Shown: positions 1 through 64,000 of the stretch, one piece after another
How positions within the stretch are numbered: the first letter of the stretch is position 1
Layout: each line of letters opens with the position of its first letter
DNA from: a bacterium
GTDB lineage: Bacteria > Patescibacteriota > Gracilibacteria > BD1-5 > UBA6164
Direction: 5' to 3'
Assembly: GCA_024635485.1 (NCBI GenBank)
Contig: JAGXIV010000036.1
Location: 18,663-82,662 of the forward strand
Length of the DNA stretch: 64,000 nucleotides
The notes under the pieces: generated by a model
What the model saw: only the letters and a program-made list of their open reading frames with translations
Told to the model about the DNA's origin: nothing
Database searches by the model: none
Translations under genes and position numbers: made by a program

Positions 1-1808
1 AATAATGGATATTTTCCATCAGTTTTAAAGAGAAAATCACACATTTGTAGAGATTCAAACAAAGCATTTACTGCAGCACTTGAATATTCTCTGAGTGCTC
101 CATAATGCTCATATAAATCTAAATTCCAGTCAGAAATTCTCTTTTCGTTGCTTCCAAGTAGGACTTTTGCTATCAGTGTTTGACCAAATTTCTCATTGTA
201 TTTTTTTACTGTTTCAAGAATAATTCCGTAACTACTGGCTGGAACGAGCTTATCTTTTTGTTCACTCGTAAATTTATTTCACTCGAGACAATAATCACAG
301 AGTCCACAATTATCTTTGAGATTTTTTACATCCTCTACATCTCCAAAGTATTCTAAAATAAATCTTTTTCTACAACTTGGATAAAACAAAAGCCTTTTAA
401 TTTGTTCGAGCTTAAAATAGGCTTCATCTTTGAGGAGCTCTTGTCGCTTCCAATCAATCATGAGATGTGCGTGCTGTCTCTTTTCTTGAAGCAGTGTCAA
501 TCATCGTCATCTAAAATCTGATTCTCGGTCTGTTTCCTCAAGTCACCTACGAAGTACATTATATTTTTCCAAAATTTTTATAATACTCCCAACAATCATA
601 TCATTTCCAACTCCAGATTCACTGGCCATAACATAGTATGTTTTTGCAACTCTCGTCCCTGAACCTTCTCAAATTTTTGATTCTTTATAGAGATAATCAT
701 AAAAATCTAAAATAAGTTTTTTTTCTGGATAAGTATTATCAATAAAAAATTCTTGAATTTTCGTATCTCCATAACTTGCAAGTACAATCCCATAACTCAT
801 TCTCGCGTCACGTCCAGCTCTCCCAACTTCTTGATAATAATTTTCTATACTACCAGGCAGATTGTAGTGGATGACAAAACGAATATCTTTTTTATCAATT
901 CCCATACCAAAGGCATTGGTGGCTACCATGACTTTATACTGGTCATTCATGAATTTATTTTGTTCTGATTCTCTGACATCAGCTGATAAATCTCATTTAT
1001 AGACTCCCGTTTTAATTGATTTTGAAAGCAAGTATTCACTCAGTTCAATCACATGCTTTCGACTCGAACAATATATAATCCCAGTTCCAGGAGTTTTTTC
1101 TATAATTTCAAGAACTTTTTTTTGCTTATCTTCTTTTGCTGAAATTTCTCGAACTACGAGAATAATATTTTTTCGATCAAAACCTGAAATAAATTCTTTA
1201 TAACTTTTTAAGCCAAGTCTTTCTACTATATCTTTTCTTACTTTCAGCGTTGCGGTTGCAGTTAATCCAATAATTGGAAAATTTCTCTGAGAACCAGAAA
1301 GGCTCTCAATGAAAGTTTTAATTTTCATATAACTTGGACGAAAATCATGTCCCCACTGAGAAATACAGTGCGCTTCATCTATGGCAACGGCTGCGATTTT
1401 TACCGTTTTTAAAATCCCAATAAACTCATTTGAATTGAGTCGCTCAGGAGCAATGTAGAGAAATTTAATAGGGTTCTCATCATCATTTGAAAAATACCTT
1501 AGCTCGTGCAAGATATCTTGTTTTTCACGTCCAGAAAGAGTCGAATTAATAAGTTCGGCTCGAATTCAAAGTTCACGAAGACTATCAACCTGATCTTTCA
1601 TAAGAGAAATAAGAGGAGAAATAACAATCGTAATTCCTTCTCGTACCATTCCAGGAAGTTGATAGGTTAAAGACTTTCATCCTCATGTCGGCATAAAAAC
1701 AAGCGTATCTTTTCACGCAACGATATGCTCTATTATTTCTTGTTGTCAGTCACGAAATGACTCCAGACCAAAGACATTCTGAAGGATATTTTCTATATTT
1801 TTTTGCAT
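1..1808 (-). CDS. recQ: ATP-dependent DNA helicase RecQ (C-terminal end lies beyond the window start)
   Basis: Track fragments 279-500, 669-950 and 993-1511 share one frame and are separated only by TGA. With TGA=Gly they give [11 protein letters not shown], Walker A MPT-G-G-GKS (two Gly are TGA), [17 protein letters not shown] and the zinc finger CRKRF..CGLCDYC. ATG at 1808. I translated the frame codon by codon and it stays open down to base 3. Confidence 0.9.
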
Positions 1809-1924
1809 AGACCCATTATGCTCCATTTGTTTTTTAATTCAACTGAAATACAAATAATTTACTTAATTTTGAAGCGTGAAAATAAAATGGTACAATGAAT
1901 ATATACATTCAAATAATTTAAAAA

Positions 1925-2461
1925 ATGAGCATAGAACAATCTCCTGAAGAAAATGAGGAGTTAGAAATATTAGTAGAAAAAATAAATGTATTTTTTCTAC
2001 TTTCTGAAGGTGAAACTGAGGCATTAAAAATGACGAGTGAATGAAAAAGACATAAACAAATAGCACACGAATTGCAACTGACTGAGTCAGCAATAAAAGA
2101 AAGAATTAGATGAGCTAGAGAAAAAATTTCTAAAAATCAGAATTTTTCTTCGAGTTATGAAGGATTTTATTGAGAGATTAAGTGACTTGCAGAAGCTATT
2201 TCATTAATAATTTGACTCCACAAAAATGATATTTTGTCAGATAAAATATTATTTTTAGAATGAATGAAAATACTCACTATTATAAGCTCTGAAAATGGCA
2301 AAGAAAGAGCGTTTAAAATAAAAATTGACCATATAGCAAGAAAGGAAAATTGATTAAATAAGAAAGTTTCTGGTTCTAAGAAAAAATGATTAAATACGCA
2401 AGTTTCTGGTTCTAGGAAAAAATTTAAATGAAAGGTCCACAAAACTATTACTTCTTCATAA
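1925..2461 (+). CDS. LuxR/GerE-type HTH protein (178 aa)
   Basis: ATG 1925, TAA 2459-2461, several in-frame TGA. The N-terminal HTH reads LSEGETEALKMTSE-G-KRHKQIAHELQLTESAIKERIR-G-AREKI. The rest has no domain I recognise. Confidence 0.6.
2351..2422 (+). repeat. 36-bp tandem duplication inside the 3' end of the LuxR-type gene
   Basis: tgattaaataagaaagtttctggttctaagaaaaaa is followed by tgattaaatacgcaagtttctggttctaggaaaaaa. They encode GLNKKVSGSKKK and GLNTQVSGSRKK. Confidence 0.7.
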
Positions 2462-4286
2462 CTTCATTTCCGATTTCTTTATATTTTTCGTAATATTCTT
2501 CCACAAATTTTCTACATTTTTTATCATTTGGAAGATACACTCAATTTTCTTTTACAACAAATTCATAGAGGAAATTTCCTGCTTCCATTTGATTTAAGTA
2601 GGTGAAAATGAGTTGTGTATAGGTTCCAGTGAGTAAATCTTTAAAAATACTGAGCGTTTCAGGCGAATAGTGAAAAGAAATTTTTCCAAACCTATAAGTC
2701 AAAATTCATGATTCAAAAAGAACGTGAAGATGAATGAGGCATTCACAATAATACGGAAGAATATCCTCAACTTCTCTATATCTCATCATTCGAATAGAAC
2801 GAACGAGATAGGTAATAAGAACATCTTCATCAAGCTCAGTATTTCATCCAGCGATAAAATAAGCTACTATTCATCCAGCTGTTGCCTTAAATTCTTCTAT
2901 ATTTTTAAAAAGTCATTTTTCCCCCATGGCAAGTTCACTTTGAGGAGTGAGCCAGAGCGTGTGCCCAAATTCATGACCAATAGTTTCTATATCATAAATT
3001 TCATAATATCTGTTTGCATCTCAGGCTAGAAAAGCTCTATATTTTTCTAAAATTTGACTATCTATCATCTCATAATCAAGCTTCATTTTAGGAGCTGATT
3101 TTTGTGATTCAAGGACGTACTTTGGGAAGGCAAAGATTTTCTTTCCGTAGATTTTACTGACTTCTCCATCATTTGGAACGACTTGAGCACTGTAGGCTCA
3201 AGTTAAAAATGAAGCGTACTGTAACACAGGAGCTCAAATATAGAGTTGGACTTTTTTTTGATTCTGAAGTGAGTATTGATAACTTTCATTAAAATTCTCT
3301 CGTCCAATTTCATCAAACATCGCTTCATACATATGTTCGATATTTTTAGATACGTGAGATTCCATAAGACTTGGGTCTGAGAGTCGCATATCAAACTCTA
3401 TAGCCACACTTCGTCTATACGCATCATCATAATATTCCATGAGATGGCCTGGTTGTACCGGTGTATCAATATCCATCCAAAGAGTATCTACCTCACTCCA
3501 TTTTTGTACACAGTGGTTTACATTCGTTTCATTCAAAGCTTGTTGAACCGCTTTGAAATATGCAATATAGGCTTGTTTTTTATTATAGACTGGATCTTCA
3601 AGTTGTTCTAAATTTTTGATAAAAATATCATAGGCTTGTGATATTTTTCAAACTTCCTCTGGAAAAGCTTCTGCGTAACTGACAGAAGTGTATCACTCTC
3701 CTGATTTTTGTAATACTGAATAACATCTATCTGCAATTTCTCCATGATGTCCCAGGTCAAAGAGATTATTTTCTTCTAAGAAAAAAATAATTGCATCTTG
3801 ATTATCATTAAACTTTGCCTCAAGTTCTCTATTTTGTTCAAATAATATTTTTCTGTTCCAAACAAGAAAAAGATTACTATAGAGTTTACCAAGAGTATGA
3901 GTTCACTGAAATATTTCCATATAAAATTCTGGAAGAAGATTTTGAGATTTTAATTCGCTTAAGAAAATCTCTTGTTTTTCTTGATAATAGTGACTCACGT
4001 AGCTATAACTTTTCTCAAAAATCTCATCTCTCTGTTGTTGATTATATCAAAGTTTTGTAACATATACATCAAGTGATTCACATTTTTTATCTGAAAGTCG
4101 AGCACTCACAGCATATCTTGATGTTGCATTTTTTTCTAAGCCTAAATAATCAAGAAAATTATCTAGAATTTTTTGAGCAGCAAGATCGTCATGGACTCAA
4201 TTACTGAGCGTGTTGAAATGAGATTCAGTTGCTTCAAAGAGTCAGTGAATTTTTGTTATATTTTTTTCAAATTGTTCCTGTGTCAT
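2448..4286 (-). CDS. pepF: M3-family oligoendopeptidase F (612 aa)
   Basis: ATG 4286, TAA 2448-2450. Track ORF 3234-3536 is in frame. The zinc motif ETIGHEFGHTLW is encoded at 2952-2987. I translated the 3' 270 nt codon by codon without meeting TAA or TAG. Confidence 0.8.
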
Positions 4287-4302
4287 AAATATTATGTATC
4301 AA

Positions 4303-4967: not shown

Positions 4968-6794
4968 TTATTTTTTCCATCCGTAACTATTTCCTCCAGA
5001 ATCACGTGATGAGCCACTCGAAGAATTTCTTGATCGACTTGCTCAAGCTCCTTTGTATCCCGAACCACCAGAACTTCGACCTCCTCCAGAGAAGCCACTT
5101 CAACCTCCTTTGTATCCTGAACCTCCTGAGCTTCGACCTCCTCCAGAGAAGCCACTTCAACCTCCTGAAAATCCTCTACTACCTCCTCCTTCATTATTTC
5201 GAGACTTTGCTTGAACCACGAGTGGTTTTACTCTATCTTTTGCTTTATAAAAATCAAGAACTTGTTGCGCGATATCTTGTTGGAGATTCATATAAGAAAA
5301 TTTTTCGAGAACGTCAATTTTTCCAACATCACCAAGTCGAATCCCTACTTCTTCTTCGAGCATTCTGATTAAACTTCCAGGATCAAGATTATCCATTTTT
5401 CCTTTTGCGATAAAGATTCTTTGTTCTCCGTTTGGAGCCATTTGTGGAGTTTCAGCAATAATATTATATGATTTTTCATCAAACTTATCTGCGTGAGCAT
5501 CTTTGAGAATTGCAGCAAGTACAATTTCTGGAGTTCCTAGTTCGAGTAAACTTTTTGCCATTGATTCAAAATCTGAAAGTTTTGCATCACTGATAAGGTT
5601 TCAAATATTTTCAACCATTCTCTTTTTTTGTATTTCTACTACTTCTTTTGCTCCAGGAACTTGTCCTTTTGTCATTTTTTGTTTGAGAAGTCTTTCAATT
5701 CCAAAGAGTTTTCTACTATCTGTTCGTGAAACGAAGTTAATAGCAGTCCCAGTCTTCCCAGCTCGAGCCGTTCGACCAATTCTATGTGTGTACACTTCAG
5801 CATTATCTGGAAGAGAATAGTTTACGACGTGAGTCAGGTCTTCAACATCGATTCCTCGAGCTGCAACATCAGTAGCTACGAGAATAGATATTTTTTTAGA
5901 TTTAAATCGTGCAAGTACTTTTTCTCTGTTTTTTTGTTCAATATCACCGTGAATTGCTTCAGCTTTGATTCCTCGACCAATAAGTTTTGATGCTACTTCA
6001 TCAACATCCATTTTTGTTTTACAAAATACGATTCCATAAAAATCTTCTGTCATATCAATCACTCGAGAAAGAGCTTCAAACTTATTTCTTGGAGCTACCT
6101 CGTAGTAAATTTGTGTAATTCTATCTGAAATAGTTGTTTTCGATTGAATCGCAACAGTATCATAATTATGCATATATTTTTTCGCAAGCATAAGAATTTC
6201 TCTTGGCATAGTTGCAGAAAAAAGAAGCGTTTTTTTATTGTCTGGAGTATGAGTCAAGATTTCTTCGATTTCTTCTCGAAACCCAATATTGAGCATTTCA
6301 TCAGCTTCATCTAAAATGAAATAAGCTATATTTGAAAGGTCGAGAGTTCTTTTTGTAATAAGGTGATCCTTTACTCTTCCTGGTGTTCCAACTACAATAT
6401 GTGCTCAATTTTTTAATTCTCGAAGTTCATCTCGAATATTTTGTCCTCCGTAGAGAAGTGTGATTTTTACTTTTGGATCAGCAAATGACTTAATCTCATT
6501 AGCTACTTGAATCGCAAGTTCTCGAGTTGGAGCTAAAATCATAGCCTGAACTCATCTTGCAGAAATATCGAGTCTATCTAAAAGTGGAAGTCCAAATGCT
6601 GCAGTCTTCCCTGTTCCTGTTTGTGCTTGACCAACGATATCGTTGTCACCATTGAGCAGAAGTGGAATAACTCCCGCTTGAATATCTGAAGGATGAATAT
6701 ATCATTTTTTTTCAATTGCCGAGAGAAGTTTTTCTGAAAGACCTAAGTCTCTAAAAGTAATTTTATTCTCAGGAGTCGCTGTTGTTTCTGTCAT
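4968..6794 (-). CDS. DEAD-box ATP-dependent RNA helicase with DbpA-type RNA-binding domain and Gly/Arg/Ser tail (608 aa)
   Basis: ATG 6794. Motifs [25 protein letters not shown] and [10 protein letters not shown] are present. Track ORFs 5601-6296 and 5157-5561 are in frame. The tail runs through 3 TGA to TAA 4968-4970 (64 codons counted). Confidence 0.9.
5048..5161 (-). repeat. 57-bp tandem duplication encoding the RGG-like tail unit
   Basis: The unit encodes [19 protein letters not shown], and the first Gly of each copy is a TGA codon. The two copies are adjacent and differ at a few bases. Confidence 0.7.
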
Positions 6795-8532: not shown

Positions 8533-8563
8533 ATATTTACTTAATTGATACTAAGTCGCAATT

Positions 8564-8962
8564 ATGAATATTGAACATATACTAAAACAACATAAAAAAA
8601 ATGTAACTCCAGAAAGAATTCAACTCTTTGAATCGATGGACGCAAAACATATTTTCTCAGCGAGTGATATTGAAGCAGAATTTCCAAAACTCTCTCGAGC
8701 AAGTATTTTTAGAACCCTGAAGCTCTTTTTGGAACTGTGAGTGCTTCGAAGACTTCCTCTCTGAGAAAATGGTGATATGTATGAAATAGAACATGAGCAT
8801 CATCACCACGAGCATATGAAGTGTCAGACTTGTGGAGATATACTGAGTTTTGATTCTGAAGGAATATGCCAAAAAATATTTGAAGCTGCAAAAAAACAAT
8901 GATTTATAATATCAGAGCATTCACTCTGAATATTTGGGACATGTAAAAAATGTATTTCTTAA
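8564..8962 (+). CDS. Fur-family metalloregulator (132 aa), possibly Zur given the adjacent ZIP gene
   Basis: The winged-helix part reads ASIFRTLKLFLEL-G-VLRRL. The metal sites read EHEHHHHEHMKCQTCG and GTCKKC. TAA at 8960-8962. Confidence 0.8.
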
Positions 8963-9299: not shown

Positions 9300-10040
9300 A
9301 TGTCTTATCTTGTCCCCTTTATTCTGCTTATAGCTATTTCATCAAGTTGATTTTTTCTGTACGGAAAAAAGAAAATTTCTAGATGTATTTTAAATATGCT
9401 CATTGGCCTATGAGCGGGTTCTATGATTTCTCTGGCACTCGTGCATATTTTCCCAGAAGCTCTTGAAGAAAATGCTTTTGCTGTCTATAGCTTTATTACT
9501 GGATTTTTACTCATATATTTAGTAGAAGAATTTCTCACTCCTCATCATCACGATCATGAACATGGAAATCATAGTCACGAAGATCCACATGAACATTATG
9601 ATCACGTTGCCATGGTCTCCTTTATTTGAGTCTTCATTCATACGCTATTTGATGGAGTATGAATAAGAGCCTGATTTTGATTCTCACCAGAGATTTGTTA
9701 TGCAGCAATATTTGCAGTCGCCTTACATCAAATCCCTGTGTCCCTTTCTCTTGCTGCTATATTTCGTGAAAGTAAATTTTCAAAACATATTCAACTCATA
9801 CTTCTCTGACTTTTTGCCATAAGCTCAAGTATTGGTTTTTTGATTTCAGATGTAATATTTATGTTTATGAGTGAAAATATAATCCCAGTAATTGCAGCTT
9901 TTGCTGGAGGTTCTCTTCTCTATATTGCAACGACTGATCTCATGCCTGTGATTCATGCCCAGAATCAAAAAAAATATCTCAGCATCATTTCTTTTCTCAT
10001 AGGATGTATCTGAATGACTCTGATAAAATTCTTTGAATAA
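9300..10040 (+). CDS. ZIP-family divalent metal (zinc) transporter (246 aa)
   Basis: Track ORF 9423-9629 is in frame. There is a His-rich loop HHHDHEHGNHSHEDPHEHYDH and ZupT-like helices (HTLFD-G-V-G-I, ALHQIPVSLSLAA). TAA 10038-10040. Confidence 0.8.
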
Positions 10041-11255: not shown

Positions 11256-12968
11256 TTAAGAGAGATACGTAATAAGTCATTCTATAGTATCTTTTCATGG
11301 ATTTCAATCTATTTGCTGCTGAGTTGAACCATCAAAATTTAGATATTCAGCTTGAATTATTTTAAGAGCGTTTCCAGATTTATTTCCCCATAGGGCATCT
11401 ATAGTCCCCATAGTATTTCTTACATCAAGCATTGAAATTGCTACTTGAAAAATATAAGCATATATAAGAGAGTCAGGACGTACAAGAGGAAATTTTTGTC
11501 ATCGTATACTTTCTAAAGCTCTGAGTAAATCCGCTCTTGATTCAATTGGAGGGAGTAGGTTTATTTCTGATTCCGTGAGTCTTGAAAAACTTATTTCATT
11601 ATGGATACTTAATTCGGGAGTTTCTTCTTGCAATACTTCTATTTCTACTGGTACATTTTCTGGATCAGGAGTACCGTAATCAGGATGTTCAAATGGAATT
11701 CCTAAATCTGGAACATCTTTATCAACGGGTCTATTGGGATCTAGATAGCTTATAGGTGGGAGTGTTGTTGTCGTTATTTCTTCGGGTTCAGTAAACTTTG
11801 AAGTTACTCAATCTTCAGAATTATTTCTAATAATTGGGAAAATAGGGGCAGTCCTATTTAAATATTCATTTTGATTTCATCCTATGTAGGCTGATATTTC
11901 TCCACTTGGAGCTATTGGCTGAGTTGGTCAAACGGTCATGATAGCAAGATTTTGTAATTGTTGTTCTTGCGTCTCGCATAAAAGTATCTTTGCATCAATA
12001 GTTGCTTTGAGTTCATTAATTTTGATAAGAGTCATTCCGTCTATACTTTGTAATCCTGCAATTGCAGTATTAATTTTGGAAATTTCAGTATTTAATTGCA
12101 GTCTTACGGTTCAGATATCTAACAATAATGTATCTATCTTTGCATTTGTTAGCGTATCAATTTCTCATAGGAGTTTTATAGACTCACTTAGAGTAGCTAC
12201 TTGATTATTAAAACTCTGAATCTGAGAAGAAATATTTTGAATATCTCATTCAATCAATCTGATTTTTTCTGTGAGTGCATTATTATCTTCAATGAGAAGA
12301 TTCACTCTATGTTGTTGCATATCTTTATATACAGCATCTCGTACTACGGAAGATTCTGAATCTATAGTATTTATTCTTTCCATTTCAGAACCTGTCATAT
12401 CATCAATCGAAGTATATTTCGCAATATCATACCATTCTGGTTTCTGAATATTTGTATTTCAAGAAGAGATTGTTCCTAGAAAATCATTATTTCTTAGGCT
12501 TATATTTTTTACAAATACATTTAAGTCTCAATTTGAAAGTTCAAAAATTATTTCTCTTTCTTCTGGTTCTATAATTTTTTCATCGTATTCAAAAAATCAA
12601 GAACCATCTTTTATAATAACCTTTGTTTGAAGATACTCTCTATTAATTTCATAAATATCCTGAATATTAAAATCAAGCCCAGCAAGATCTATTATTTTTT
12701 GTAATTGCAGCATTCAATCTATATCATGTACCATGAATCATTGTATCAATGAATCTTGAAGTATATCTTGGAGTACACATTTTGATCTCTCATATACATT
12801 TTCAGTATCATTTCCCAGAGCTTCATACAGAGTTGATATAGTCTCAGTATCATTTGAATCAAGTTTTCAATCTGATATCATTTTTTGAATTAATTCATCG
12901 AGATTTGAATTATTAGCGTTTGAGTCCTGAACTCACTCTGAATTTGAAATTATATGTTCGAATCCCAT
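11256..12968 (-). CDS. Hypothetical protein with a central coiled-coil-like region (570 aa)
   Basis: ATG 12968 and TAA 11256-11258 are in the same frame. My translation is continuous, with many TGA. The centre has heptad-like runs (LIE-G-DIQNISSQIQSFNNQVATLSESIKLL). The C-terminal half is rich in Pro, Asp and Glu. Confidence 0.5.
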
Positions 12969-15461: not shown

Positions 15462-16124
15462 CTATTGAGCTATATAACCATATCACTTTTTTGTTTCTAC
15501 GATATCTCTCCCTAATTTTTTTCTAATGTATCCTATATAGACATCAACAGTTTTAGAAAACATAAAGTCTCCCTCAAATTCTCACCATACTTTTTCATAC
15601 AATTCTTGTCGTGTTACGACTTTATTTTTATTTTGCGCAAAATATTTTAGTAAATCAAATTCAAGATTAGAAAGATGAAATGATTCTTTGCTATTGTAGA
15701 CTTCTCGCTTCACTAAGTCTATGGTATAGTCAGCAATAGTCAATGTTGTGGTAGATTTATTTTTGAGATTACGTCTTGTAAGTGCATCAAGTCTCGCCAC
15801 AAGAATATCATAATCAAAAGGTTTTATGAGATAGTCATCTGCCCCTGCTTCAAGTCCAGCAATCATATCTTCCTTGCTACTACGACTTGTAAGCATAATA
15901 ACTGGCACATCTTTTTCTTTTTCTCTGAGTTCTCGACACAGAGTAATTCCATCTTTTTCTGGAAGATTAATATCTAAGATGATTGCATCATAATATTTAG
16001 TGGCAGCTTTATATAAACCATCTATACCATCTGGACTAATATCTGCCTGAATATTTTTAGTGGCGAGAAACCTTACGACACTCGTAGCAAGAGCTTGAGT
16101 ATCCTCTACAATTAATACCTTCAT
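15462..16124 (-). CDS. OmpR-family response regulator (220 aa)
   Basis: Track ORF 15582-16124 gives the receiver (ILDINLPEKDG, LIKPF). It continues VW-G-EFEGD..TVDVYIGYIRKKL..KK-G-YGY to TAG 15462-15464. The kinase starts 10 nt downstream. Confidence 0.85.
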
Positions 16125-25637: not shown

Positions 25638-25638
25638 T

Positions 25639-26346: not shown

Positions 26347-26364
26347 CATACTTAAAACAAATCT

Positions 26365-26709: not shown

Positions 26710-26710
26710 T

Positions 26711-27181: not shown

Positions 27182-27183
27182 TT

Positions 27184-42357: not shown

Positions 42358-43374
42358 TTATTTTTCTAAGTGATTAATCCCTCTTCCAGTGATTTTTCGA
42401 CCTCGAGGGGTTCGTTCTATGAATCAAATTTGGAGTAAATATGGCTCTACAACATCTTCAAGCGTTGCTTCTTCTTCTCCAAGTGTTGAACTGAGGGTTC
42501 CAAGTCCTACTGGACCTCATTTAAAGTTTTTGAAAATACTTTGTAGATATTTTCTATCGAGATAATCAAGTCATTTTTCATCAATACCTATGTCTTGAAA
42601 TACTCACGCTAATACAAGTGGATCAGAAATATTTTTTCAAATGGTATGATAGTCTCTGAGAATTTTGAGGAGTCTATTAGCGATTCGTGGAGTACCACGA
42701 GATTTTTGTGCTATCAATGTAAGCGTCTCATCGGGAAGATCAAAACCGAGCATTTCACAGTTATTTTTGAGAATAATCGCAATTTGAGGCGTATCATAAA
42801 AATCGAGTTTGAGAACATTTCCAAATCTATCTCGAAGTGGAGAACTCAAAGCAGAAAGTCTCGTAGTAGCTCAAACGAGTGTAAATGGCTTTACTGGAAG
42901 CTTCACACTCTGGGCTCACGTCCCACTTCATACCATTATATCAATCTGAAAATCCTCCATAGCAGTGTAGAGTATTTCCTCTACTTGTGGTCTAAGTCTA
43001 TGAATCTCATCTATAAAGAGAATATCTCAAGATTCTAAATTAGAGAGAATACTCACCAGATCAGACTGTTTTTCGATTGCTGGACCAGAGCTCGTCCTGA
43101 GATGTGAATCCATTTCATGAGCGAGAATATTTGAGAGAGTGGTCTTTCCAAGTCCAGGAGGACCATAAAAAATAATATGCTCTAAACATTCACCTCTAAT
43201 TTTTGCCGAAGAAATAGATACCATAAGATGTTTTTTGATGGTATCTTGACCAATATAATTCTCGAGAGTTTTAGGTCGAAAGCCATTTTGAAAACTCGCA
43301 CTCTCCCCCTTTTTTTCTTCAGGAGAAATCACTCTATCAGCTTGTGTTGTATCTTTTTGAGAAGAAGAAATCAT
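42358..43374 (-). CDS. ruvB: Holliday junction branch-migration ATPase RuvB (338 aa)
   Basis: Track ORFs 43027-43374 (GPPGLGKTT) and 42637-42849 are in frame. LFIDEIHRL and -G-ATTR are present. TAA 42358-42360. Confidence 0.9.
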
Positions 43375-43564: not shown

Positions 43565-44035
43565 ATGGACTTAAACAAGGTACAAATCATCGGACGAATT
43601 ACTCAAGATATTGAGCTCAGACAGACTCCAAACGGACAAAGTGTTACAACCCTTTCGATAGCAACCAATAGAAACTGGACAGATGGACAAGGAATGAAAC
43701 AAGAACAAGCAGAGTTTCATAATGTCGTTCTCTGGGCTAAACTCGCTGAAATAGCTTCTCAGTACCTTCAAAAAGGTAAAAAGGTATATATAGAAGGCAG
43801 AATGCAAACTCGAAGCTGGGAAGCTCAAGATGGTTCTAAAAGATATCGAACAGAAATAATCGGAGAAAATATGATTATGCTTGATGGAAACGGGAATGAC
43901 TCAGGAAATGGGAATAGTGGAGGATATAATCAAAATGATTCCAGTTCACAATCTCCTGCTAATGATACTCCCGCTATAAAAAAATCATCCCCAAAACAAG
44001 AAGAAGAAATTTCTGTTGAGGATCTTCCATTTTAA
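43565..44035 (+). CDS. ssb: Single-stranded DNA-binding protein (156 aa)
   Basis: This is an intact track ORF. It has an OB-fold N-terminus, a Gly/Asn-rich linker and an acidic tail EEEISVEDLPF. It contains no TGA codon. Confidence 0.9.
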   Translation: MDLNKVQIIGRITQDIELRQTPNGQSVTTLSIATNRNWTDGQGMKQEQAEFHNVVLWAKLAEIASQYLQKGKKVYIEGRMQTRSWEAQDGSKRYRTEIIGENMIMLDGNGNDSGNGNSGGYNQNDSSSQSPANDTPAIKKSSPKQEEEISVEDLPF

Positions 44036-45178: not shown

Positions 45179-46027
45179 ATGAAGTTAGACGGAAAGCTTC
45201 TAGCAGCTAAAATATACGATTCACTTAAAACTGAAATTTCGAAAGAGGAACAAAAACCATGTCTTTGAGCTATTTTGATTGGGGATTCTAATTCTCCAAG
45301 TCTGAGATATATAAAGCAAAAAAGAAAATTTGCAGAGTCTATTTGAATGAATTTTCAACTTTTTCAATATCCAGAAACAATTTCAGAAACACAACTCATC
45401 TGAGAAATTCAAAAAGTAAATACAGACAAAAGTATTTCATGATATATTGTACAACTCCCTCTCCCTCCTCATATACAAACTCATAACATTATTCGAGCTA
45501 TTGATCCAGAGAAAGATATAGATTGATTTCATCCAGAAAATCAAGGAAAAGTCATGATATGAGATAATTCAGGATTTATTCCATGTACACCAAAATGAAT
45601 TTTGAAACTTTTAGAGGAATATAATATAACTCTGGCTTGAAAAAAAATAGTTATCATAGGGAGAAGCAACATCGTTTGAAAACCTATGACACTCCTGTGT
45701 ATAAATGCCGGAGCTACTGTTATAAGCTGTAACTCTCAAACTCCAGATATAAGAGAGTATACAAAAAATGCAGACATAGTAATCCTGGCAACCGGTCAGG
45801 CAGCTATCTTATGAGCTGATATGATTGGTCAGCATACAGTAGTTATAGATGTATGATTTTCACTTATTGGAGGACAAATAGTATGAGATGCTCGTTATCA
45901 AGAGATTTTAGAACAAGGAAACTCCATCACACCAGTTCCAGGGTGAGTAGGACCTATGACCGTAGCGATGCTTCTCACACAGTGTTATGATGCTTTTAAA
46001 AAACAAACATGAAAAACGAAAACATAA
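45179..46027 (+). CDS. folD: Bifunctional methylenetetrahydrofolate dehydrogenase/cyclohydrolase FolD (282 aa)
   Basis: ATG 45179. Motifs S-G-YIVQLPLP, D-G-FHP, IGRSNIV-G-KP and PVPG-G-VGPMT, with the TGA at 45944-45946. TAA 46025-46027. Confidence 0.9.
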
Positions 46028-46327: not shown

Positions 46328-46404
46328 GCGGGTGTAGCTCAATTGGCTAGAGCATCTGCCTTCCAAGCAGAGGGTTGTGAGTTCGAGTCTCATCACCCGC
46401 TCCA
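46328..46404 (+). tRNA. tRNA-Gly (anticodon UCC)
   Basis: 77-nt cloverleaf: acceptor gcgggtg/cacccgc, D arm gctc-aattggcta-gagc, anticodon arm tctgc-cTTCCAa-gcaga, T arm gtgag-ttcgagt-ctcat, and an encoded CCA. Confidence 0.85.
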
Positions 46405-46492: not shown

Positions 46493-46569
46493 GGGTGTAT
46501 AGCTCAGCTGGTTAGAGCGCACGACTGATAATCGTGAGGTCGATAGTTCAAATCTATCTATACCCACCA
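46493..46569 (+). tRNA. tRNA-Ile (anticodon GAU)
   Basis: 77-nt cloverleaf: acceptor gggtgta/tataccc, anticodon arm cacga-cTGATAa-tcgtg, T arm gatag-ttcaaat-ctatc, and an encoded CCA. Confidence 0.85.
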
Positions 46570-46596: not shown

Positions 46597-46673
46597 CGGG
46601 AACTGGCGCAATTGGCTAGCGCACACGCTTTGGGAGCGTGGGGTTGTGAGTTCGAGTCTCGCGTTCCCGACCA
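46597..46673 (+). tRNA. tRNA-Pro (anticodon UGG)
   Basis: 77-nt cloverleaf: acceptor cgggaac/gttcccg, anticodon arm cacgc-tTTGGGa-gcgtg, T arm gtgag-ttcgagt-ctcgc, and an encoded CCA. Confidence 0.85.
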
Positions 46674-50022: not shown

Positions 50023-51846
50023 TTATTCTACCGTCACAGATTTAGCAAGATTTCTTGGTTTATCTACATCTCTTTCTAGGGCTTCAGCAAGATACAGTGC
50101 AAAGAGATAACTTGAAACAAGACCTGTAAATACTGAAAGTAGTTCAGAGGTTTCCGGAAGTTCAATGGTGTCAGTATAGAGCTCTTTATGTGTATCATTT
50201 GAAGAAATAAACCCTAGTATAGGACCTTTTCGTGCTGAGACTTCTTGGATATTAGAAATAGTTTTTGCGTAAAACTTTCCCATAGGATTAAATACAATAG
50301 TTGGAAATGTTTCACTTACTAAAGCAAGAGGACCATGCTTCAGTTCTCCAGCAGAATAGCTCTCTGAATGGATATACGATAATTCTTTGATTTTGAGAGA
50401 AGCTTCGCCTGCTACAGGATAGAAATAATTTCGACCGAGTACAAACATATCATTGTATACAGAGTACTTTTTTGCAAGTTTTTTAATGTGTGGCCCCTGC
50501 ATAAGTGCTTGTGATATTTTATCTGGAAGTCTTGAGAGTTCACTAATGATCTCACGAGCATCAGATATCTGTAAATCTTTTTTAAGTCAAAGGCTTATAG
50601 ACATCATAAGTAGAACTCATATTTGAGCAATAACATTTTTAGTACTTGCTACTCCTACTTCTACTCAAGCATGAGAATAAAGTCCAAGATCTGCCATTCG
50701 AGCAATAGTAGAACCAACTACATTTACGATTCAAAAAGTCATACATCTTTTAGCTTTGACAATTTTCATAGACTCACGTACATCAGCCGTTTCTCCAGAT
50801 TGGCTTAGAAATATATAGAGAGTTTTGCTATCTGGGATAAATACGTCAGAAAGAAATTCACTAGAAATGATTGCTGAAGCTTGAATTCATGAAAATTTTC
50901 TAAAAAAGTAATTTCATATTTCTCCAGCATAATAACTTGAACCAGAAGAAATAATACAAATCCTTTCTATATCAAGATCAGAGAGTGCATCAAGTGTTTC
51001 ATTGTGAATAGATTTATTTTTAAAATCAATTCTCCCGGACCATACATTTTCAAGAACCGCAGGAATATCAAAGATTTCTTTTTCTGTATAGCTCGTAAAA
51101 TCTCCAAGCTCATCTATTTTTTGCCCTTCTTGAACGGCCTCAGCATCTCTTTCAACTTTTTTTCAAGACATAAAAATAGAGTAATCACCATTTTCAATAA
51201 CTACCATTTCGTTATCTTCTAGAATACTGAAGCTCTCTGCTAAATTGGAGAGTGCATTTATATCACTTGAAATATAGACTCAGTCGTTACTTTTTCCAAC
51301 AATCAAAGGACTTCAGAGTTTTATACCTACTATTTCTCCTGGATTTTCTGAATCGACTACGGCAAGTGAATAAGCTCCAACAAGTTTTGCTACAACTTTT
51401 TCCATAGTTGACTTGAGATTTCCATCGTAGAGAGATTCTACGAGTTTTGCGACAACCTCCGTATCTGTTTGTGAATAAAAGCTATATTTTTCAGAAAGAG
51501 ATTTTTTTAGTTCCTTGTAGTTTTCTATAATTCCATTATGTACCACATAAAATCTTTCATTTGTGGATATGTGAGGATGAGTGTTTTCTACTGTTACCCC
51601 TCCATGTGTAGCCCATCTTGTATGAGCTATTCAAGTAGTATATTTTATTGAATCTCATTTTTTTTCATCTACTTTACTTGCAAGAGCAGAAACTCTTCCA
51701 ACTGCTTTTTCTAAAAAAATATCACTCTCTTCACTCAGAGCCATGATTCCTGCACTGTCATATCCACGATATTCTAACATTCGAAGTCCATTTACAAGCA
51801 TTTCTCGACAATCTTTTGTTCCTGTATACGCAAAAATTCCACACAT
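50023..51846 (-). CDS. glmS: Glutamine--fructose-6-phosphate aminotransferase GlmS (607 aa)
   Basis: ATG 51846 gives MCGIFAY. Track ORFs 51655-51954, 51313-51546 and 50023-50502 (SIS domain, C-terminal KSVTVE) share one frame. TAA 50023-50025. Confidence 0.9.
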
Positions 51847-51952
51847 AGTTAATTGGTTTATATTATAGAGTTTAGTTCTTGTAGAACGATATTTTTTTCT
51901 TGTAAAATTTTTAATTCCCCCTGAGTAAATCATTGATTTGGATCTCTTTCCC

Positions 51953-52941: not shown

Positions 52942-52975
52942 AAAAATATCCTAGAAAATCTAGGATATTTTTTTT
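52942..52975 (-). terminator. Terminator hairpin
   Basis: aaaatatcctag-aaaat-ctaggatatttt, immediately after the stop of the repeat-protein gene. Confidence 0.7.
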
Positions 52976-53750
52976 AATAAGAATAACAAGAATAACCGTA
53001 TACTAGATCAAAATTCGAGCCATAAACATAATGACCGTTTTGATAGCTATATTGTGAATAGTAACAATAATCTGGATTGTATGGAATATAATCAGCACCA
53101 TATATGTAACGTGGATAGTTATTATACTCGATATTGTAGGGTGATTCTTGATTATAATTATTGTAATTTACAGGAAAGTCATTTCACTGGAAATTGTTAT
53201 AATCTATATTTCTATTTGAACCTTGGAAATTATTATAGTCAATATTATTCTTACTGTTCTGAAAACTTTCATAATCTATATCATCTCTACTTCTTTGGAA
53301 GTTATTATAGTCTATGTCATACTCATTTCACTGGAAATTATTGTAATCTATATTTCTATTTGAACCTTGGAAATTATTATAGTCTATATTATTCTTACTG
53401 TTCTGAAAGCTTTCATAATCTATATTATATCAAGATTTTTTATAATTTTCGTAATCAATATTATATTTAGATTTTTGAAAATCATTATAATCAACTTCAT
53501 ACTCACTTCCCTGGTACGTATTGTAATTAATATTATACTTTGATGTTTGAAAATCGTTATAATCGATGTTATAACCTGCGTTTTTGAAGTTATCGTAGTC
53601 AATGTCATATTTATTTTGACTCGGAAAACTATTGTAGTCAATATTGTACTGAGTCTGAGTCGGAAAGCTATTATAATCTATCACTGCATGAGTCACTAAT
53701 GACTGTGATGATACAGTGATGATACAGAGGATGTAAAATATTTTTTTCAT
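52974..53750 (-). CDS. Secreted Tyr/Asn/Asp-rich tandem-repeat protein (258 aa)
   Basis: Track ORF 53430-53750 (signal peptide MKKIFYILCIITVSSQSLVTHA) continues through 3 TGA. I translated every codone down to TAA 52974-52976. There are about 16 units such as YNIDYNSFPSQNK, YNIDYNDFQTSK and NIDYNNFQGSNR. Confidence 0.6.
53050..53660 (-). repeat. Coding tandem repeat, 36-39-bp period, with a higher-order 144-bp duplication
   Basis: About 98 bp at 53183-53280 recur at 53327-53424 with 4 mismatches by my alignment. The short period corresponds to the 12-13-residue (N/D)IDY(N/E)xF(Q/P) unit. Confidence 0.75.
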
Positions 53751-53755
53751 TCTGT

Positions 53756-54508
53756 CTATTTAATATATATTCTTCCTTCTTTTACTTCAGGAAGATTAGG
53801 ATTTACCCAAGTTGGAGTGGAAGTATAATTCATTGTATGAGTTCCATAACAATTTTGAGTATATTCAGAATCATTAAAACGATAATCAGGATACTGAGAA
53901 TAACTATAACAGATTCGAGGATTAGAATTGTACAAAGTTGTTTGTTTTGCAGAATAAATTCTTTGACCAGAAGTTGAGTAATAATAAGTGTTTACATTAT
54001 TATTACTATAATTTTCTTGTCTTTCTATATCATCTATTATTTGTTGTAATTGTTTTTGTCTTGAAACAATATAACTTTTTTCTTGCTCTAAACTATATTC
54101 ATAATCTCTATAATAGTTTCCTTTCATTTTAGAAATATTAATGAGTTGTACATTAATTTGTGCTTCTTTCTTTCTTAAGAAATTTTTTTCGTCTTTTAAT
54201 CTCTTATAATCAGTATTAAAATTTATTGTATTAGATTTGTAATAATTGTTCGCGAAAGTATTCGTTTGCGTGTAATTCTTATTTCTTATACTATAATCTG
54301 AATAATAATATGGTGATTTTGTATTAATATATCCTCCCGTTTTATTAAGATCATAGCTATAGCTTGGAGTCAAAGTTTCCAGAGTATCTGGATCTAAACG
54401 AGATTGGATATTAGAGTTTCCAGTATTTGTATAATATTCAAAAAGTCCTGCCTGAGCTTGGGTAATACTGATAATAAGGAAAAAAACTATTTGGAGAAAT
54501 ATTTTCAT
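53756..54508 (-). CDS. Secreted Tyr/Asn-rich protein (250 aa)
   Basis: This is an intact track ORF with signal peptide MKIFLQIVFFLIISITQAQA. The flanks are Y/N/S/T-rich around a central coiled-coil-like segment (KRLKDEKNFLRKKEAQINVQLINISK). It has a TAG stop and no TGA codon. Confidence 0.6.
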   Translation of the reverse strand: MKIFLQIVFFLIISITQAQAGLFEYYTNTGNSNIQSRLDPDTLETLTPSYSYDLNKTGGYINTKSPYYYSDYSIRNKNYTQTNTFANNYYKSNTINFNTDYKRLKDEKNFLRKKEAQINVQLINISKMKGNYYRDYEYSLEQEKSYIVSRQKQLQQIIDDIERQENYSNNNVNTYYYSTSGQRIYSAKQTTLYNSNPRICYSYSQYPDYRFNDSEYTQNCYGTHTMNYTSTPTWVNPNLPEVKEGRIYIK

Positions 54509-54620: not shown

Positions 54621-56387
54621 TTATGGACATGTTCCCCATTGAGGTTGAATAGAAGCATTATTTAAAAATCATGAATTAGTATTTTCATCAAATAAATTTG
54701 CCTTTGTTGGAATATTAGTAACACACCATGAAGAAATGTTTTGAACAAAACTTTGATTATTTCTAAAAGTAGCTCACATATTTGTTACTTTAGACGTGTC
54801 CCAATTTGAAATATCTTGGTTAAAATCACTTGGTCATTTAAAAGTTCCAAAGAGACTTGTTACATTCTGCATTTTCCAATTACTCAAGGATTGATTAAAG
54901 ACAGTAGCATTATCAAAGGCATAATTTACAGCTGAACTTCAAGAAAAAGATACTGTATCCCAGTTATTGAGAGGTTGATTAAATACAGATGCTCCTGCAA
55001 ACATACTTCCTATTCTGTATACATTAGAAATTTTCCAATTATTTATATTTTGGTCAAATGCTTTTGCTCATCGAAACATAGCAAGCAGAGATGTCGCATT
55101 ATCCATCTTCCAATTTCAAATATTTTGATTAAATACTTTTGCTGCATCAAACATAAATTCAAAATTTACTCAACTTAAAGTATTCCAATAAGAAATATCA
55201 TTATTAAAAGTAAGATTCGATTGAAATAATTTAGAAAAATCTGTAATTTGACCCGTAAATACTCAGTTTGGAAGAAAGGTTCTAAAAGTCGTACCTCAAA
55301 CAATTACTGCGGGATTAGTAGTATCTGTATCATAGGCAACTACTTGATTGAGTAATGCTCTATCTACAATCAAGAGACCATTACATCACTCCCAACTTCA
55401 AACAATTCAAAGATTACTGGGATTATAACATTCTGCATCTATTACTATAGGTGTATTAGGTACTGAAACATTAAGTAAAATCGTACTAGTAATTCATAAC
55501 TTATTATTCTTCAGAAATTGATCTACTAGAGTAAATTCATTTCAAGGAGTTGTATTAGTAATATTATCATAATTACTTCTATCAGAAATATTAGAATTAG
55601 CATAGTAAGAAACAAGATTCTCTCAGAATGTTTGTTTTATATTTTTTTGTGCAAGAGCAATAATAGGTCAACTATAAATTATTGGTGCTGTATTAGCAGG
55701 CATTGTTCCTGGAATAAAACTACTTCCATCAATTAATGTTTGTCATACTGGAAGGGATTGTGCATAAGATCCTGGAAGACTTTTTGAATTCTTAAGAGAG
55801 AAGCTTTGATTTGTGAGGATTTGTTCCACAGTAACATCTGTTATCTCACTCGTTATAAGAGTTGGAACTCAGAGGATATACAAATAGTCACTTTGTTTCA
55901 CTGCTACTATTTCTTTGTTATAGTTTCCTACTACATTTGTATAATAGGAATTAGCTGCATTCGCTTTTTGAGTGATTAGGTTTCTTACGAGTAGTGGACT
56001 CTCACTTATAGCTCCTAGTTCATATTCACTTCTCGTATTTGTGGTAGAATATGCATAAGGAGTCCCCAGAAGTGGATCTGTTGGAACTTCTGAGATGCGT
56101 GTGACTATGTTTCTCGTAGCATCTCCAAAGACACCTTGCTTCCATGCAAGTGAACCTGAGTATGAAATTGTGATGAAGTCTGTTGGATCAGGATAGTATC
56201 CTTCTGTTGTTTGGAAGAACTCTAAAGAGCGTTGTATTGTTGCAAGGTCAGAGATACGTGCTGATTCTCTTGCTGAGACCGAGTAGCCTTGGAGGGATAT
56301 AAATCCAATGGTTCCCAAAATTGCTAAAATTGTAATAACGACGATAAGTTCAACAAGCGTGAAGGCTTGTTTCTTAAATACATACAT
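54621..56387 (-). CDS. Modular type IV pilin: class III signal/pilin N-terminus fused to a DUF285/BspA-type repeat domain (588 aa)
   Basis: Track ORF 55869-56387 starts MYVFKKQA-FTLVELIVVITILAILGTIGF. I checked all 415 downstream triplets and found only TGA, never TAA or TAG, until TAA 54621-54623. The C-terminus has about 6 units such as FDAAKVFNQNI-G-NWKMDNATSLLAMF and FAGASVFNQPLNNWDT. Confidence 0.7.
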
Positions 56388-56467: not shown

Positions 56468-56899
56468 CTACCGTCTCAAGTCATAAAGTTTTAATTGAGC
56501 TATAGACTTTAGAAGCATATCTTCTGCTTCAATAAATTTTTCCATATCAACTTGATCTTTTGAATACTTGTATTTTTCCATGAGATCTAATGCTCTTTGT
56601 TTTGCTAACTCGGCTTGATCAAGATCAACTTCTTCAACATCAATGAGCATATCAGCCATAATCTTTACTGAAGAGTTATGAACTTCTACGACACCAGAAC
56701 CGACTGCAAAATCTTCTCTTTGATTCATATTATTTTCATCTTTAAAAATAATATAGAGTACACATGGCTCAATAGATGCAATCATAGGACTATGTCTATC
56801 AAGAATAGTAATTTCACCTGATTTGGTCATAACGGTTACCGATATAACACTATCGTTTGAGAAATTTTCTCCAGAAAATGAGAGGACTTTTAATTTCAT
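56468..56899 (-). CDS. atpC: F-type ATP synthase subunit epsilon (143 aa)
   Basis: This is an intact track ORF directly after atpD. It has the beta-sandwich plus helical-hairpin length and layout. TAG stop, no TGA. Confidence 0.85.
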   Translation of the reverse strand: MKLKVLSFSGENFSNDSVISVTVMTKSGEITILDRHSPMIASIEPCVLYIIFKDENNMNQREDFAVGSGVVEVHNSSVKIMADMLIDVEEVDLDQAELAKQRALDLMEKYKYSKDQVDMEKFIEAEDMLLKSIAQLKLYDLRR

Positions 56900-56921: not shown

Positions 56922-58316
<1,395 letters not shown>

Positions 58317-58953: not shown

Positions 58954-59859
58954 TTAGCTATCTTTGAGTGCTTCAACTCAAGCGACAATCTCTGAAACTT
59001 CTCGAGTAATAAGACCTTGTCGAGCCTTATTATAAGCAAGAGTCAACATCTCAGCTATTTTTTTAGAATTATCTTTTGCTGCCTTCATAGCGACCATTCG
59101 AGCCGAATGTTCTGAAGCTTTTGATTCAAGTACGATATCATAAAACATCATATCAAGAATAATAGGAATTACGTCCATAGCTATAGCCTCCATCGAAGGT
59201 TCGATGATATAATCTGTAACGTCATTTTTAATTTCTTTGAGAGCTTCTGGATCATTTACAACATCTTCTAGATATTTTCTGACTGCAGCGTCATCAATTG
59301 GAAGAAATTCACGAGCAATAGGTACTTGCTTGATTGAATTCACGTAATAGTTATAAAAAATAACTACTTTCCCATATTCACCACTTAAATATTTTTCATA
59401 AATAAGTCGAGTTACTGACTTGATAAATAATGGATCAATGTTATCAGTGAATTCTGGAGAGAAATCAGCCAATAAAGTATTCCCAGTTCGCGCTACAAAT
59501 GCAGAGGCTTTTTTTCAAAGTGTTATGTATTCTAATTTTTCAGATACATTATCTTTTACATATTCATTTACTTTTTTAAGTACATTTACGTTGTATCCTC
59601 CACATAATCATTTATTTGAAGTGATAACAATAGCCAATGTTTTTTTACTTTCAAACTTTGAAAAATAAGGAAAGTCATGAAGAAATTCTTCAATTCTTCC
59701 AAAAATCTTCAACATTTCAAGAACGAAATCTTTCTTAGAAAGAGCTAATTCTTGGGCTTTTTTCATTTTTACTGTTGAAATAAGCTCCATTGCTTTTGTA
59801 ATTTTGGCAGTATTTTGAATACTCCCAATTTTTCGTTTTATCTCTTTAGCGTTTGACAT
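58954..59859 (-). CDS. atpG: F-type ATP synthase subunit gamma (301 aa)
   Basis: Track ORFs 59608-59859 and 58978-59472 are in frame. The C-terminus reads ITREVSEIVA-G-VEALKDS and runs through a TGA to TAA 58954-58956. Confidence 0.9.
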
Positions 59860-59874
59860 AAGATGAGATAGTTT

Positions 59875-61380
59875 TTATTTATTAAGTTCTACTACTTTTT
59901 CAATAATATTGATGAGTTTTTTCTCAGTATCTTCTGATATATTTTTTTCATCTGTAATTGCTTTGAGGACTGTTTTTTCTTCGTCGAGTGAAGCGTGTAA
60001 ATCAGATTCAAACTTCAGTACTTTATCTACTGGGATAGTATCAAGGAAACCACGTCCACCAGCAAAGAGTGATGCTACTTGTTTTGGAACTGGAACAGGA
60101 GCATTGAGTCCTTGTTTAAGAAGTTCCATCATTCGAGCTCCTCTATCAAGTTGTTTTCGAGTTGCCTCATCGAGATCAGAAGCAAATTGAGAAAATGCAG
60201 CGAGTTCTCGGTATTGAGCAAGGTCAAGTTTGAGTGTTCCTGAGTTCTTCTTCATAGCTTTCATTTGAGCAGAACCTCAAACTCGAGAAACAGAGAGACC
60301 TACTGAAATTGCTGGTTTTTGTCATGAGTTGAACAGATTTGTATCAAGGAAGATTTGACCATCTGTAATAGAAATTACATTTGTAGGAATATACGCTGAT
60401 ACATCACCTGCTTGAGTTTCAATAATTGGAAGTGCCGTCATAGAACCACCACCCATTTCATCATTGAGTTTCGCTGATCTTTCTAGAAGTCTAGAATGAA
60501 GGAAAAATACATCCCCAGGATACGCTTCTCGACCTGGCGGTCTTCGCAAGAGAAGTGACATTTCTCTGTAGGCTACTGCTTGTTTTGAAAGGTCATCATA
60601 TATAATAAGAGAATGTTGACCGTTATACATGAAATATTCAGCCATCGCACATCCAGTGTAGGGAGCAAGGTATTGCATTGCTGCTGGTTCTGAAGCACCA
60701 GCAGAGACAACAATCGTATAATCCATAGCTCCTGCTTTTCGAAGGTTTTCTACAATTCGAGAAACTTTTCCTTCTTTTTGCCCTATTGCAACGTATACAC
60801 ATGTTATTCCTTGTCCTTTTTGGTTCAAAATAGTATCAATAGCGACTTGAGTTTTCCCAACTTGTCTATCCCCGATAATAAGCTCTCTTTGTCCTCGACC
60901 AATAGGCACAAGTGCATCAATAGCCTTGATACCAGTTTCCATAGGTTCATGAACTGATTTTCGAGCCATAACTCCCTCAGCTTGTCGCTCAACTGGATAG
61001 TTTTCTTTTGATTTAATTTCACCAAGACCATCAATAGGACGACCAAGTGAATCAACAACTCGACCAATCATTTCCGGACCAACAGGAACCTCAAGTGTTT
61101 TACCACTCGTTTTTACTTTTTCACCTTCTTTAATTTTTTGAAATCATGAAAGTACCACAACTCAAACATAATGATCTTCTAAATTAAGTGCAACTCACAC
61201 TGCACCACTTTCAAATTCTAAAACTTCATTGTATGAAGCTTTTGCAAGACCTGAAACTTTCGCAACACCGTCCCCAAGGTAAAATACCTCACCAACATTT
61301 TCTATTTCAGGATTAAGATTTGTAGAATCAATTTTAGTTTCTATCTCTGAAATAATTGACTGCAATACATCGTTTGACAT
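59875..61380 (-). CDS. atpA: F-type ATP synthase subunit alpha (501 aa)
   Basis: Track ORFs 61195-61380, 60322-61071 (GDRQVGKT) and 59875-60264 share one frame. TAA 59875-59877. Confidence 0.95.
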
Positions 61381-61495
61381 ATATATTTTTAGATTAAAGT
61401 ATAATAATTTTATCTATTTTCCTCACACAGCACTCTCTTGGAAGCGTCTAGAATTCGGAGAAAGTAGTGCGTAAGGAAAATACGCTTTTTTGTTT

Positions 61496-61843: not shown

Positions 61844-61853
61844 ATACAGTTTA

Positions 61854-62357: not shown

Positions 62358-62400
62358 ATATTAAATAGGTTCTAAATCTATAAAGTCTCTTTGTGCTCTA

Positions 62401-62634
<234 letters not shown>

Positions 62635-62702
62635 TCAATTATAATAAAAATTAAAATGGCATTCTCTCAAAATATATTTTAAGAAAATGAATACCTTAAT
62701 TT

Positions 62703-63554: not shown

Positions 63555-63762
63555 TGATAGGTGAAATTGTTTGTATATCTTGTAATAATTTTCATGCTTT
63601 GAGGTACATTATCAAACCCAAAACAGGGAGAGAAAAGCAGATACTTATGAGTCTCATAAGGTTACCAGTGCCAAAAAGCGCGTCGAGTATAAGTCAAATA
63701 AGATAAAAAGCAAGTAAATTACCCAAAATTATGATGTTGATTTTTAAGAGGATTCCCAGCAT
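63529..63762 (-). CDS. AtpZ/AtpI-like small membrane protein (77 aa)
   Basis: ATG 63762. It has two TM helices with LDALFGTGNLMRL between them. It overlaps the atpB start by 26 nt. TAA 63529-63531. Confidence 0.45.
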
Positions 63763-63824
63763 AAAAAATAGACTCAAAAAATAATTTTAAGTCTATTGTA
63801 TGTAAGAATATATAATGTCGAATT

Positions 63825-64000
63825 TTAAGTATCCATTTTTTTAATTTCTTCAGAGATATATTCTCTGTTGACATCATTTTTTCCAAACATCTTTTCATTG
63901 AGTTTCAGAGAAACATCAAGAATATGTGTTTTCATTTGGCCTAACATACTTCTTCGCTCTTTTTCGACTTCTCTCTTTCCTCATTCTAAAATGCTCAGAG
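63825..64000 (-). CDS. Second b-subunit-like protein, C-terminal part only (N-terminus lies beyond the window end)
   Basis: The translation EKERRSMLGQMKTHILDVSLKLNEKMFGKNDVNREYISEEIKKMDT parallels the AtpF C-terminus EKERQSMLSQIKKNMVDITLRLNEKLFKDSKVSKDFIEKNIDSL. TAA 63825-63827. Confidence 0.55.

Follow-up and report, generated by a model that had tools for sequence, protein, structure and literature searches.

Evidence that UGA is read as glycine across a 64-kb window from a Gracilibacteria/BD1-5 bacterium

The DNA analyzed here, referred to as the window, is a stretch of 64,000 nucleotides from contig JAGXIV010000036.1 (assembly GCA_024635485.1) with a guanine-cytosine (GC) content of 32%. 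It carries an ATP synthase operon, genes for enzymes such as folD, glmS, ruvB, recQ and selO, two OmpR-type response regulators and three tRNA genes (Table 1), and a preliminary description of it had claimed that UGA is read as Gly throughout, so that ORFs (open reading frames) called by the standard code fragment nearly every gene. When TAA, TAG and TGA were all treated as stops (translation table 11), no stop-to-stop ORF of at least 300 amino acids was obtained, the longest being 277 amino acids, and ORFs of at least 150 amino acids took up 17% of the window. Freeing TGA alone as a sense codon gave 29 stop-to-stop ORFs of at least 300 amino acids, with a maximum of 746, whereas the control stop sets in which TAG or TAA was freed gave 0 and 1, respectively, a pattern well outside what chance would produce. 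A gene set was then built from greedy, non-overlapping TGA-sense ORFs, in which two ORFs lying in a wrong frame or on a wrong strand were replaced by a Fur-family gene and atpE. This corrected set consisted of 66 genes covering about 89% of the window, and 62 of them contained in-frame TGA (about 402 codons in total). Fifty-four genes ended at TAA, 11 at TAG and one ran off the window, and no sign of any TGA-terminated gene was seen in the set. Frequent in-frame UGA in intact, conserved genes, with UAA and UAG as sole terminators, is the pattern expected of a member of table 25.

Once TGA was read through, the proteins ran co-linear with the E. coli orthologues and shared their end points. All 13 orthologue pairs reached the normal C-terminus and ended at TAA or TAG; for instance, SelO has 479 amino acids compared to 478 in E. 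coli, and GlmS, AtpB and SelO aligned to the final residue. Genes were broken by TGA only; TAA and TAG never interrupted them and the frames were never shifted, as had been stated for the fragments and the gene ends in the preliminary description. In the 849-nucleotide folD, no table-11 ORF exceeded 48 amino acids. The fragmentation under table 11 is itself the one observation in favor of the standard code, under which the in-frame TGAs would be real stops originating from pseudogenes or from sequencing or assembly errors. Such damage would not be confined to TGA, nor would some 402 interruptions fall preferentially at invariant Gly residues of essential enzymes and be conserved in relatives recovered from other samples. 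The standard-code reading is already refuted, and its remaining chance is as good as nil.

In order to see which amino acid TGA represents, window proteins were aligned, with TGA masked as X, to 13 orthologues of E. coli K-12 MG1655 (glmS, atpC, atpD, atpG, atpA, atpB, folD, serS, ruvB, selO, recQ, deaD and htpG). TGA faced Gly at 51 of 95 sites (54%) and Trp at one; in the same alignments, GGN faced Gly at 212 of 316 sites (67%), TGG faced Trp at 11 of 26 (42%), and the background of Gly was 8%. Scoring of each codon against the 20 amino acids by BLOSUM62 gave Gly as the best fit for TGA with a mean of 2.45, followed by Ala with 0.03, and all other codons with adequate counts took their standard meaning. 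The composition pointed the same way: Gly makes up 4.4% of residues if TGA is left out and 6.5% if it is counted, while table 4 would take Trp from 0.7% to 2.8%. Selenocysteine was considered as a further candidate and rejected, as TGA sites faced neither Cys nor selenocysteine and some 400 sites, spread over nearly every gene, cannot all be selenocysteine.

FolD was examined with a non-circular panel of 80 genes of standard-code bacteria and archaea of very wide diversity, taken from one FolD-alignment scan of genome contigs. Only standard-code loci survived in the scan, since its tblastn confirmation step works against relatives rich in TGA. Ten of the 14 TGA sites of folD lay on columns with at least 72% Gly, four of them being 100% Gly, and the TGA columns held Gly in 785 of 1064 cells and Trp in none. 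All four TGA sites of AtpD, including two in the Walker A loop, faced Gly in the beta subunits of F. nucleatum and E. coli, and residue-level alignments to PDB structures of FolD, SelO, AtpD, GlmS and RuvB gave the same pattern of TGA on Gly. UGA therefore aligns to conserved Gly of standard-code homologues and not to conserved Trp.

The motifs in which the preliminary description had placed TGA were found in the frames given there: LKG[TGA]KVGLFGGA[TGA]VGKT in AtpD, PVPG[TGA]VGPMT in FolD, MPT[TGA]G[TGA]KS in RecQ, VW[TGA] in both OmpR-type regulators and EIVA[TGA]VEAL in the gamma subunit, while the conserved Trp of GWPSF in the MsrB-like protein is encoded by TGG. The codon positions cited there, 57885-57887 and 57858-57860 in atpD (minus strand) and 45944-45946 in folD (plus strand), all proved to be TGA. 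For SelO the claim stood in part. AGHQF[TGA] was present, but in the L-G-D-G-RA motif TGA encodes the first Gly only (ML[TGA]DGRA), the second not being TGA. An additional SelO TGA, in SR[TGA]GDGRA, aligned with Met in the SelO proteins of E. coli and P. syringae.

A comparison independent of any translation was possible with two relatives that share the gene order of the window, a 991-kb JGI contig and the 740-kb contig JAACSU010000007.1 of GCA_010119145.1, labelled Candidatus Gracilibacteria bacterium at NCBI. The codon comparison covered 19 orthologous gene pairs for the first and 16 for the second, with mean amino acid identities of 77% and 82%, respectively. At window-TGA sites, the JGI contig carried TGA at 66 and GGN at 45 of 123, and the GCA_010119145.1 contig carried TGA at 41 and GGN at 39 of 82 (pooled, 107 TGA, 84 GGN and no TGG at 205 sites). 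The exchange involved GGA, GGT, GGG and GGC. Window TGG sites, on the other hand, kept TGG at 39 of 41 positions in the JGI contig and at all 26 in the GCA_010119145.1 contig (pooled, 65 of 67) and never carried TGA. Since TGA and GGN replace each other in the relatives without TGG taking part, they drift into one another as synonymous codons do; TGA and TGG do not, and UGG stays Trp.

These data bear directly on the reading of UGA as Trp (table 4), which is the code of Mycoplasmatales and several insect endosymbionts. The known table-4 systems (Mycoplasmatales, Hodgkinia, Nasuia, Zinderia, Stammera and some Eggerthellaceae) resemble the window in that UGA is a sense codon, table-11 calls are fragmented and genomes are small and AT-rich, a feature shared by the low GC content found here, and one of the 95 TGA sites does face Trp in E. 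coli. However, the amino acid differs: in the window, UGA occupies Gly columns and is exchanged for GGN, whereas no exchange with UGG occurs in either direction, Trp is absent from all 1064 FolD cells, and the Trp content would reach 2.8%. UGA = Trp is already refuted by the alignments and the codon exchange and is hardly credible, in agreement with the preliminary description, which had set the code apart from the Mycoplasma type.

Public protein records might at first sight suggest the opposite. The records P0001 (FolD) and P0246 (TraC-like), which come from the 83,145-bp source contig, differ from the window proteins only in having Trp at every TGA. Among 120 FolD relatives, Trp ranged from 0 to 23 and Gly from 30 to 2 in a complementary manner with their sum roughly constant, showing that these Trp residues are mistranslated Gly; some relatives had 21-23 Trp and only 2-3 Gly, TGA being nearly the sole Gly codon there. 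The TGA columns of the TraC-like family likewise showed a mixture of Trp and Gly. Trp at TGA sites is thus a product of gene calling by a table-4 proxy, wrong for P0001 and P0246, and not evidence for Trp. According to the gTranslate preprint, density heuristics of the kind used in CheckM or Prodigal cannot separate tables 4 and 25. The value of the present result is chiefly practical, for annotation, and it holds little scientific surprise. Annotation of the contig by table 11 yields fragments only, as the case of folD illustrates, and the table-4 proxy of common pipelines wrongly places Trp at about 2% of residues, catalytic glycines included; structure predictions, family profiles and phylogenies built on records such as P0001 and P0246 inherit the error.

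As for the organism, the named top matches of AtpD, the TraC-like protein and FolD were all Candidatus Gracilibacteria bacterium, with a best identity of 96% for AtpD and at most 80% for the TraC-like protein. Matches included oral GN02/HOT-871 genomes and a BD1-5 genome from an oil community, with AtpD identities of about 80-83%. These matches and the gene order common to the window, GCA_010119145.1 and the JGI contig support the placement in the Gracilibacteria/Absconditabacteria group given in the preliminary description. We read the window as chromosomal DNA of a low-GC Gracilibacteria/BD1-5 bacterium of the candidate phyla radiation (CPR) that uses NCBI translation table 25 with UGA as Gly, with a probability of roughly 0.96, which upholds both the observation and the interpretation of the preliminary description. 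UGA is read as Gly well enough to stand in catalytic loops of essential enzymes.

Several points weigh against this reading. TGA faced Gly less often than GGN did (54% versus 67%, Fisher p = 0.02), and one TGA of SerRS aligned with Trp in E. coli. No tRNA with anticodon UCA was found in the 64-kb window, and no release-factor gene either, the class-I GGQ motif occurring in no frame of this small part of the genome. The placement is drawn from best matches and synteny, and no rRNA and no ribosomal-protein block lies in the window.

UGA is an ordinary Gly codon here, with only UAA and UAG terminating. The way in which it would be decoded can be outlined by analogy with the mechanism published for the clade: a dedicated tRNA-Gly with anticodon UCA and the Gly identity set (G1:C72, C2:G71, G3:C70, U73) would decode it, and loss of release factor 2 (RF2) would leave no competitor at UGA. 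Both this tRNA with its identity set and the loss of RF2 serve as criteria for the clade (Shulgina & Eddy 2021, PMC8629427), and proteomics of a BD1-5 bacterium yielded 97 peptides unique to the UGA = Gly version as compared to 3 for the Trp version (Hanke 2014, PMC4032931). An Rfam search of the window returned three tRNAs only, Gly(UCC), Ile(GAU) and Pro(UGG), and the syntenic loci of the two relatives held the same trio or no tRNA, with no tRNA(UCA) among them.

Metagenome contigs were also scanned with a tRNA pattern combining a Gly acceptor stem with a UCA anticodon. The scan gave 15 loci, six of them with a tRNA(UCA) of normal length, on heterogeneous contigs (GC 25-62%), none tied to the organism of the window. 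Among these contigs only two look recoded. One has a GC content of 25% and bears, besides the tRNA(UCA), a sigma-70 ORF that needs TGA as sense; it illustrates such a decoder but is not linkable to the window genome. The other, Ga0208460_10000166 (29% GC; features at 145-3197 and 11751-11823), encodes a tRNA(UCA) whose acceptor stem is of the Gly type and whose anticodon stem has 4 bp, and its ORFs hold 16-29 TGA versus only 0-7 GGN codons. This contig may be a phage or mobile element whose host uses table 25.

TGA makes up 32.5% of the Gly codons of the window, about one third, second only to GGA, and its use per gene is very uneven (chi-square p = 1e-10). It is low in ssb and atpA (Table 1), atpD (4 of 44 Gly codons) and deaD (7 of 64), and high in folD (14 of 27) and in the gene of an SBP_bac_5 protein (27849-30062, 20 of 34). 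In genes likely to be highly expressed, the share was 16% versus 37% in the others (Fisher p = 3e-11). This unevenness, the slightly lower occurrence of TGA than GGN on conserved Gly, and the isolated peptides in which Hanke 2014 (PMC4032931) saw Trp, Ala, Asp or Lys at UGA would be in line with an ambiguous UGA, mostly Gly but sometimes a stop or another amino acid depending on context. No gene, however, requires TGA as a terminator, the 13 orthologue pairs end normally at TAA or TAG, and catalytic motifs, Walker A among them, contain TGA at points where a misread codon would be lethal. We regard such ambiguity as highly improbable.

The other codons in question are CGA and CGG, both predicted to be Trp in Absconditabacteria, with CGG = Trp also predicted in some Gracilibacteria (Shulgina & Eddy 2021, PMC8629427). 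CGA is common in the window (86 per 10,000 codons) and faced Arg at 46 of 74 positions in the E. coli alignments, so that the Absconditabacteria variant of CGA does not apply here, judging from these alignments. CGG has all but disappeared, with five in-frame occurrences among 18.8 thousand codons (2.7 per 10,000). In 120 relatives of the TraC-like gene, one of its two CGG columns held Arg (92) and Lys (28) and the other Arg (54), Val, Thr, Gln, Ser and Ala, with Trp absent from both; hence both informative sites are on Arg/Lys-type columns, and the remaining CGG sites lie in basic, hydrophilic contexts. CGG = Arg looks like the better reading, although five codons are too few to settle it. 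A code in which table 25 is extended by CGG, and perhaps CGA, as Trp (the Codetta prediction for Absconditabacteria and some Gracilibacteria) could appeal to those predictions and to the near-extinction of CGG, as would be expected of a codon about to be captured or already undergoing capture. With CGA plainly Arg and the CGG columns free of Trp, we consider the extended code very unlikely. It is also unlikely, to a slightly lesser degree, that table 25 is not the end state of the lineage, in which case CGG would be unassigned or in transition toward Trp and the capture of UGA incomplete; since UGA is strongly avoided in highly expressed genes, its decoding could still be costly or error-prone.

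With UGA as Gly, UGG as Trp and UAA/UAG as stops, the window does not differ in code from table 25 as used in Gracilibacteria/BD1-5 (GTDB class JAEDAM01, order BD1-5). Absconditabacteria (SR1), also a low-GC CPR lineage with UGA = Gly and a high share of UGA among Gly codons, differ in the predicted Trp meaning of CGA and CGG (PMC8629427), CGA being Arg and common in the window and CGG being without any sign of Trp. The reading of CGA as Arg also fits Gracilibacteria better than Absconditabacteria. Table-25 genomes number several hundred, and NCBI already annotates close relatives of the contig with table 25. Table 25 was reportedly described in Gracilibacteria/BD1-5 by Rinke in 2013, and UGA = Gly in Absconditabacteria (SR1) is said to go back to Campbell in the same year. 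The phenomenon has thus been known since 2013, and the window is one more, unremarkable member of a recoded clade. The GC content is close to that of the BD1-5 bin of Hanke (33% versus 32% in the window, PMC4032931), and the statement in the preliminary description that UGA = Gly is known only from Absconditabacteria and Gracilibacteria agrees with Shulgina & Eddy 2021 (PMC8629427) and the gTranslate preprint.

Table 1. Positions of genes and codons discussed in the text (window coordinates)
Feature	Position	Strand	Remarks
Whole window	1-64000	.	about 66 genes continuous only with TGA as sense; about 402 in-frame TGA; ends TAA/TAG only
recQ	3-1826	-	11 TGA including MPT[TGA]G[TGA]KS; runs off window end
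Fur-family regulator (PF01475)	8564-8962	+	4 TGA; directly upstream of ZIP-type metal transporter
ZIP-type metal transporter	9300-10040	+	downstream of Fur-family regulator
OmpR-type response regulator	15462-16124	-	VW[TGA]
Second OmpR-type response regulator	22021-22683	+	VW[TGA]
msrB-like gene	24317-25078	+	Trp of GWPSF is TGG
TraC-like gene (PF26593)	25639-26346	+	two CGG (26140-26142, 26305-26307)
In-frame CGG codons	26140-26142, 26305-26307, 27095-27097, 39651-39653, 56471-56473		five in window
selO	39303-40742	+	17 in-frame TGA; CGG at 39651-39653
ruvB	42358-43374	-	9 in-frame TGA; 5 face Gly in E. coli RuvB
ssb	43565-44035		TGA 0/14 Gly codons
folD	45179-46027	+	14 in-frame TGA, e.g. 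45944-45946 in PVPG-G-VGPMT
tRNA-Gly(UCC)	46328-46404	+	followed by Ile and Pro tRNAs
tRNA-Ile(GAU)	46493-46569	+	after tRNA-Gly(UCC)
tRNA-Pro(UGG)	46597-46673	+	after tRNA-Ile(GAU)
glmS	50023-51933	-	11 in-frame TGA; ends on same residue as E. coli GlmS
atpD (F1 beta)	56922-58316	-	4 in-frame TGA including 57885-57887 and 57858-57860 in Walker A loop
atpG (gamma)	58954-59859	-	3 TGA, 3/3 facing Gly in E. coli AtpG
atpA	59875-61380		TGA 5/46 Gly codons
atpE (c subunit, 76 amino acids)	62401-62631	-	TGA-free; between atpB and atpF

At two loci the longest ORF was not the gene. At the Fur locus, the longest ORF lies on the opposite strand (8551-8958) and is spurious, and the longer ORF overlapping atpE (62378-62638) is in the wrong frame. 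The first ATG of glmS is probably about 29 codons too early. In the GCA_010119145.1 relative, a second atpB-atpE-atpF set was observed upstream of the operon.

Some further genes of the window were noted as well. The minus-strand gene at 54621-56387 encodes a 588-amino-acid protein whose N-terminus bears a methylation motif like that of type IV pilins (PF07963), with DUF285 repeats (PF03382, a 'Mycoplasma' family) after it, and the gene is conserved at the same position in both relatives. At 52974-54508 on the minus strand, two adjoining genes encode secreted proteins that are rich in Tyr and Asn and match no Pfam family; one of them is built from some 14 repeats of an 'NIDYNNFQ'-like unit. 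A small cluster resembling type IV secretion or conjugation systems lies at 25221-27606 (plus strand) and includes a PrgI family protein, the TraC-like protein (PF26593), a type IV secretion system pilin (PF18895), a DUF5673 protein and a holin-family membrane protein; the TraC-like protein shows 65-89% identity across more than 100 Gracilibacteria contigs. On the minus strand at 2448-4286, a 612-amino-acid protein gave an end-to-end match to DUF7897 (E = 9e-174) and bears an HEFGH zinc-peptidase-like motif. The DeaD-type helicase (4968-6794, minus strand) has a Gly-rich, RGG-like C-terminal tail, in which TGA codons stand within a repeated GG[TGA][17 protein letters not shown] unit, an internal illustration of TGA as Gly.

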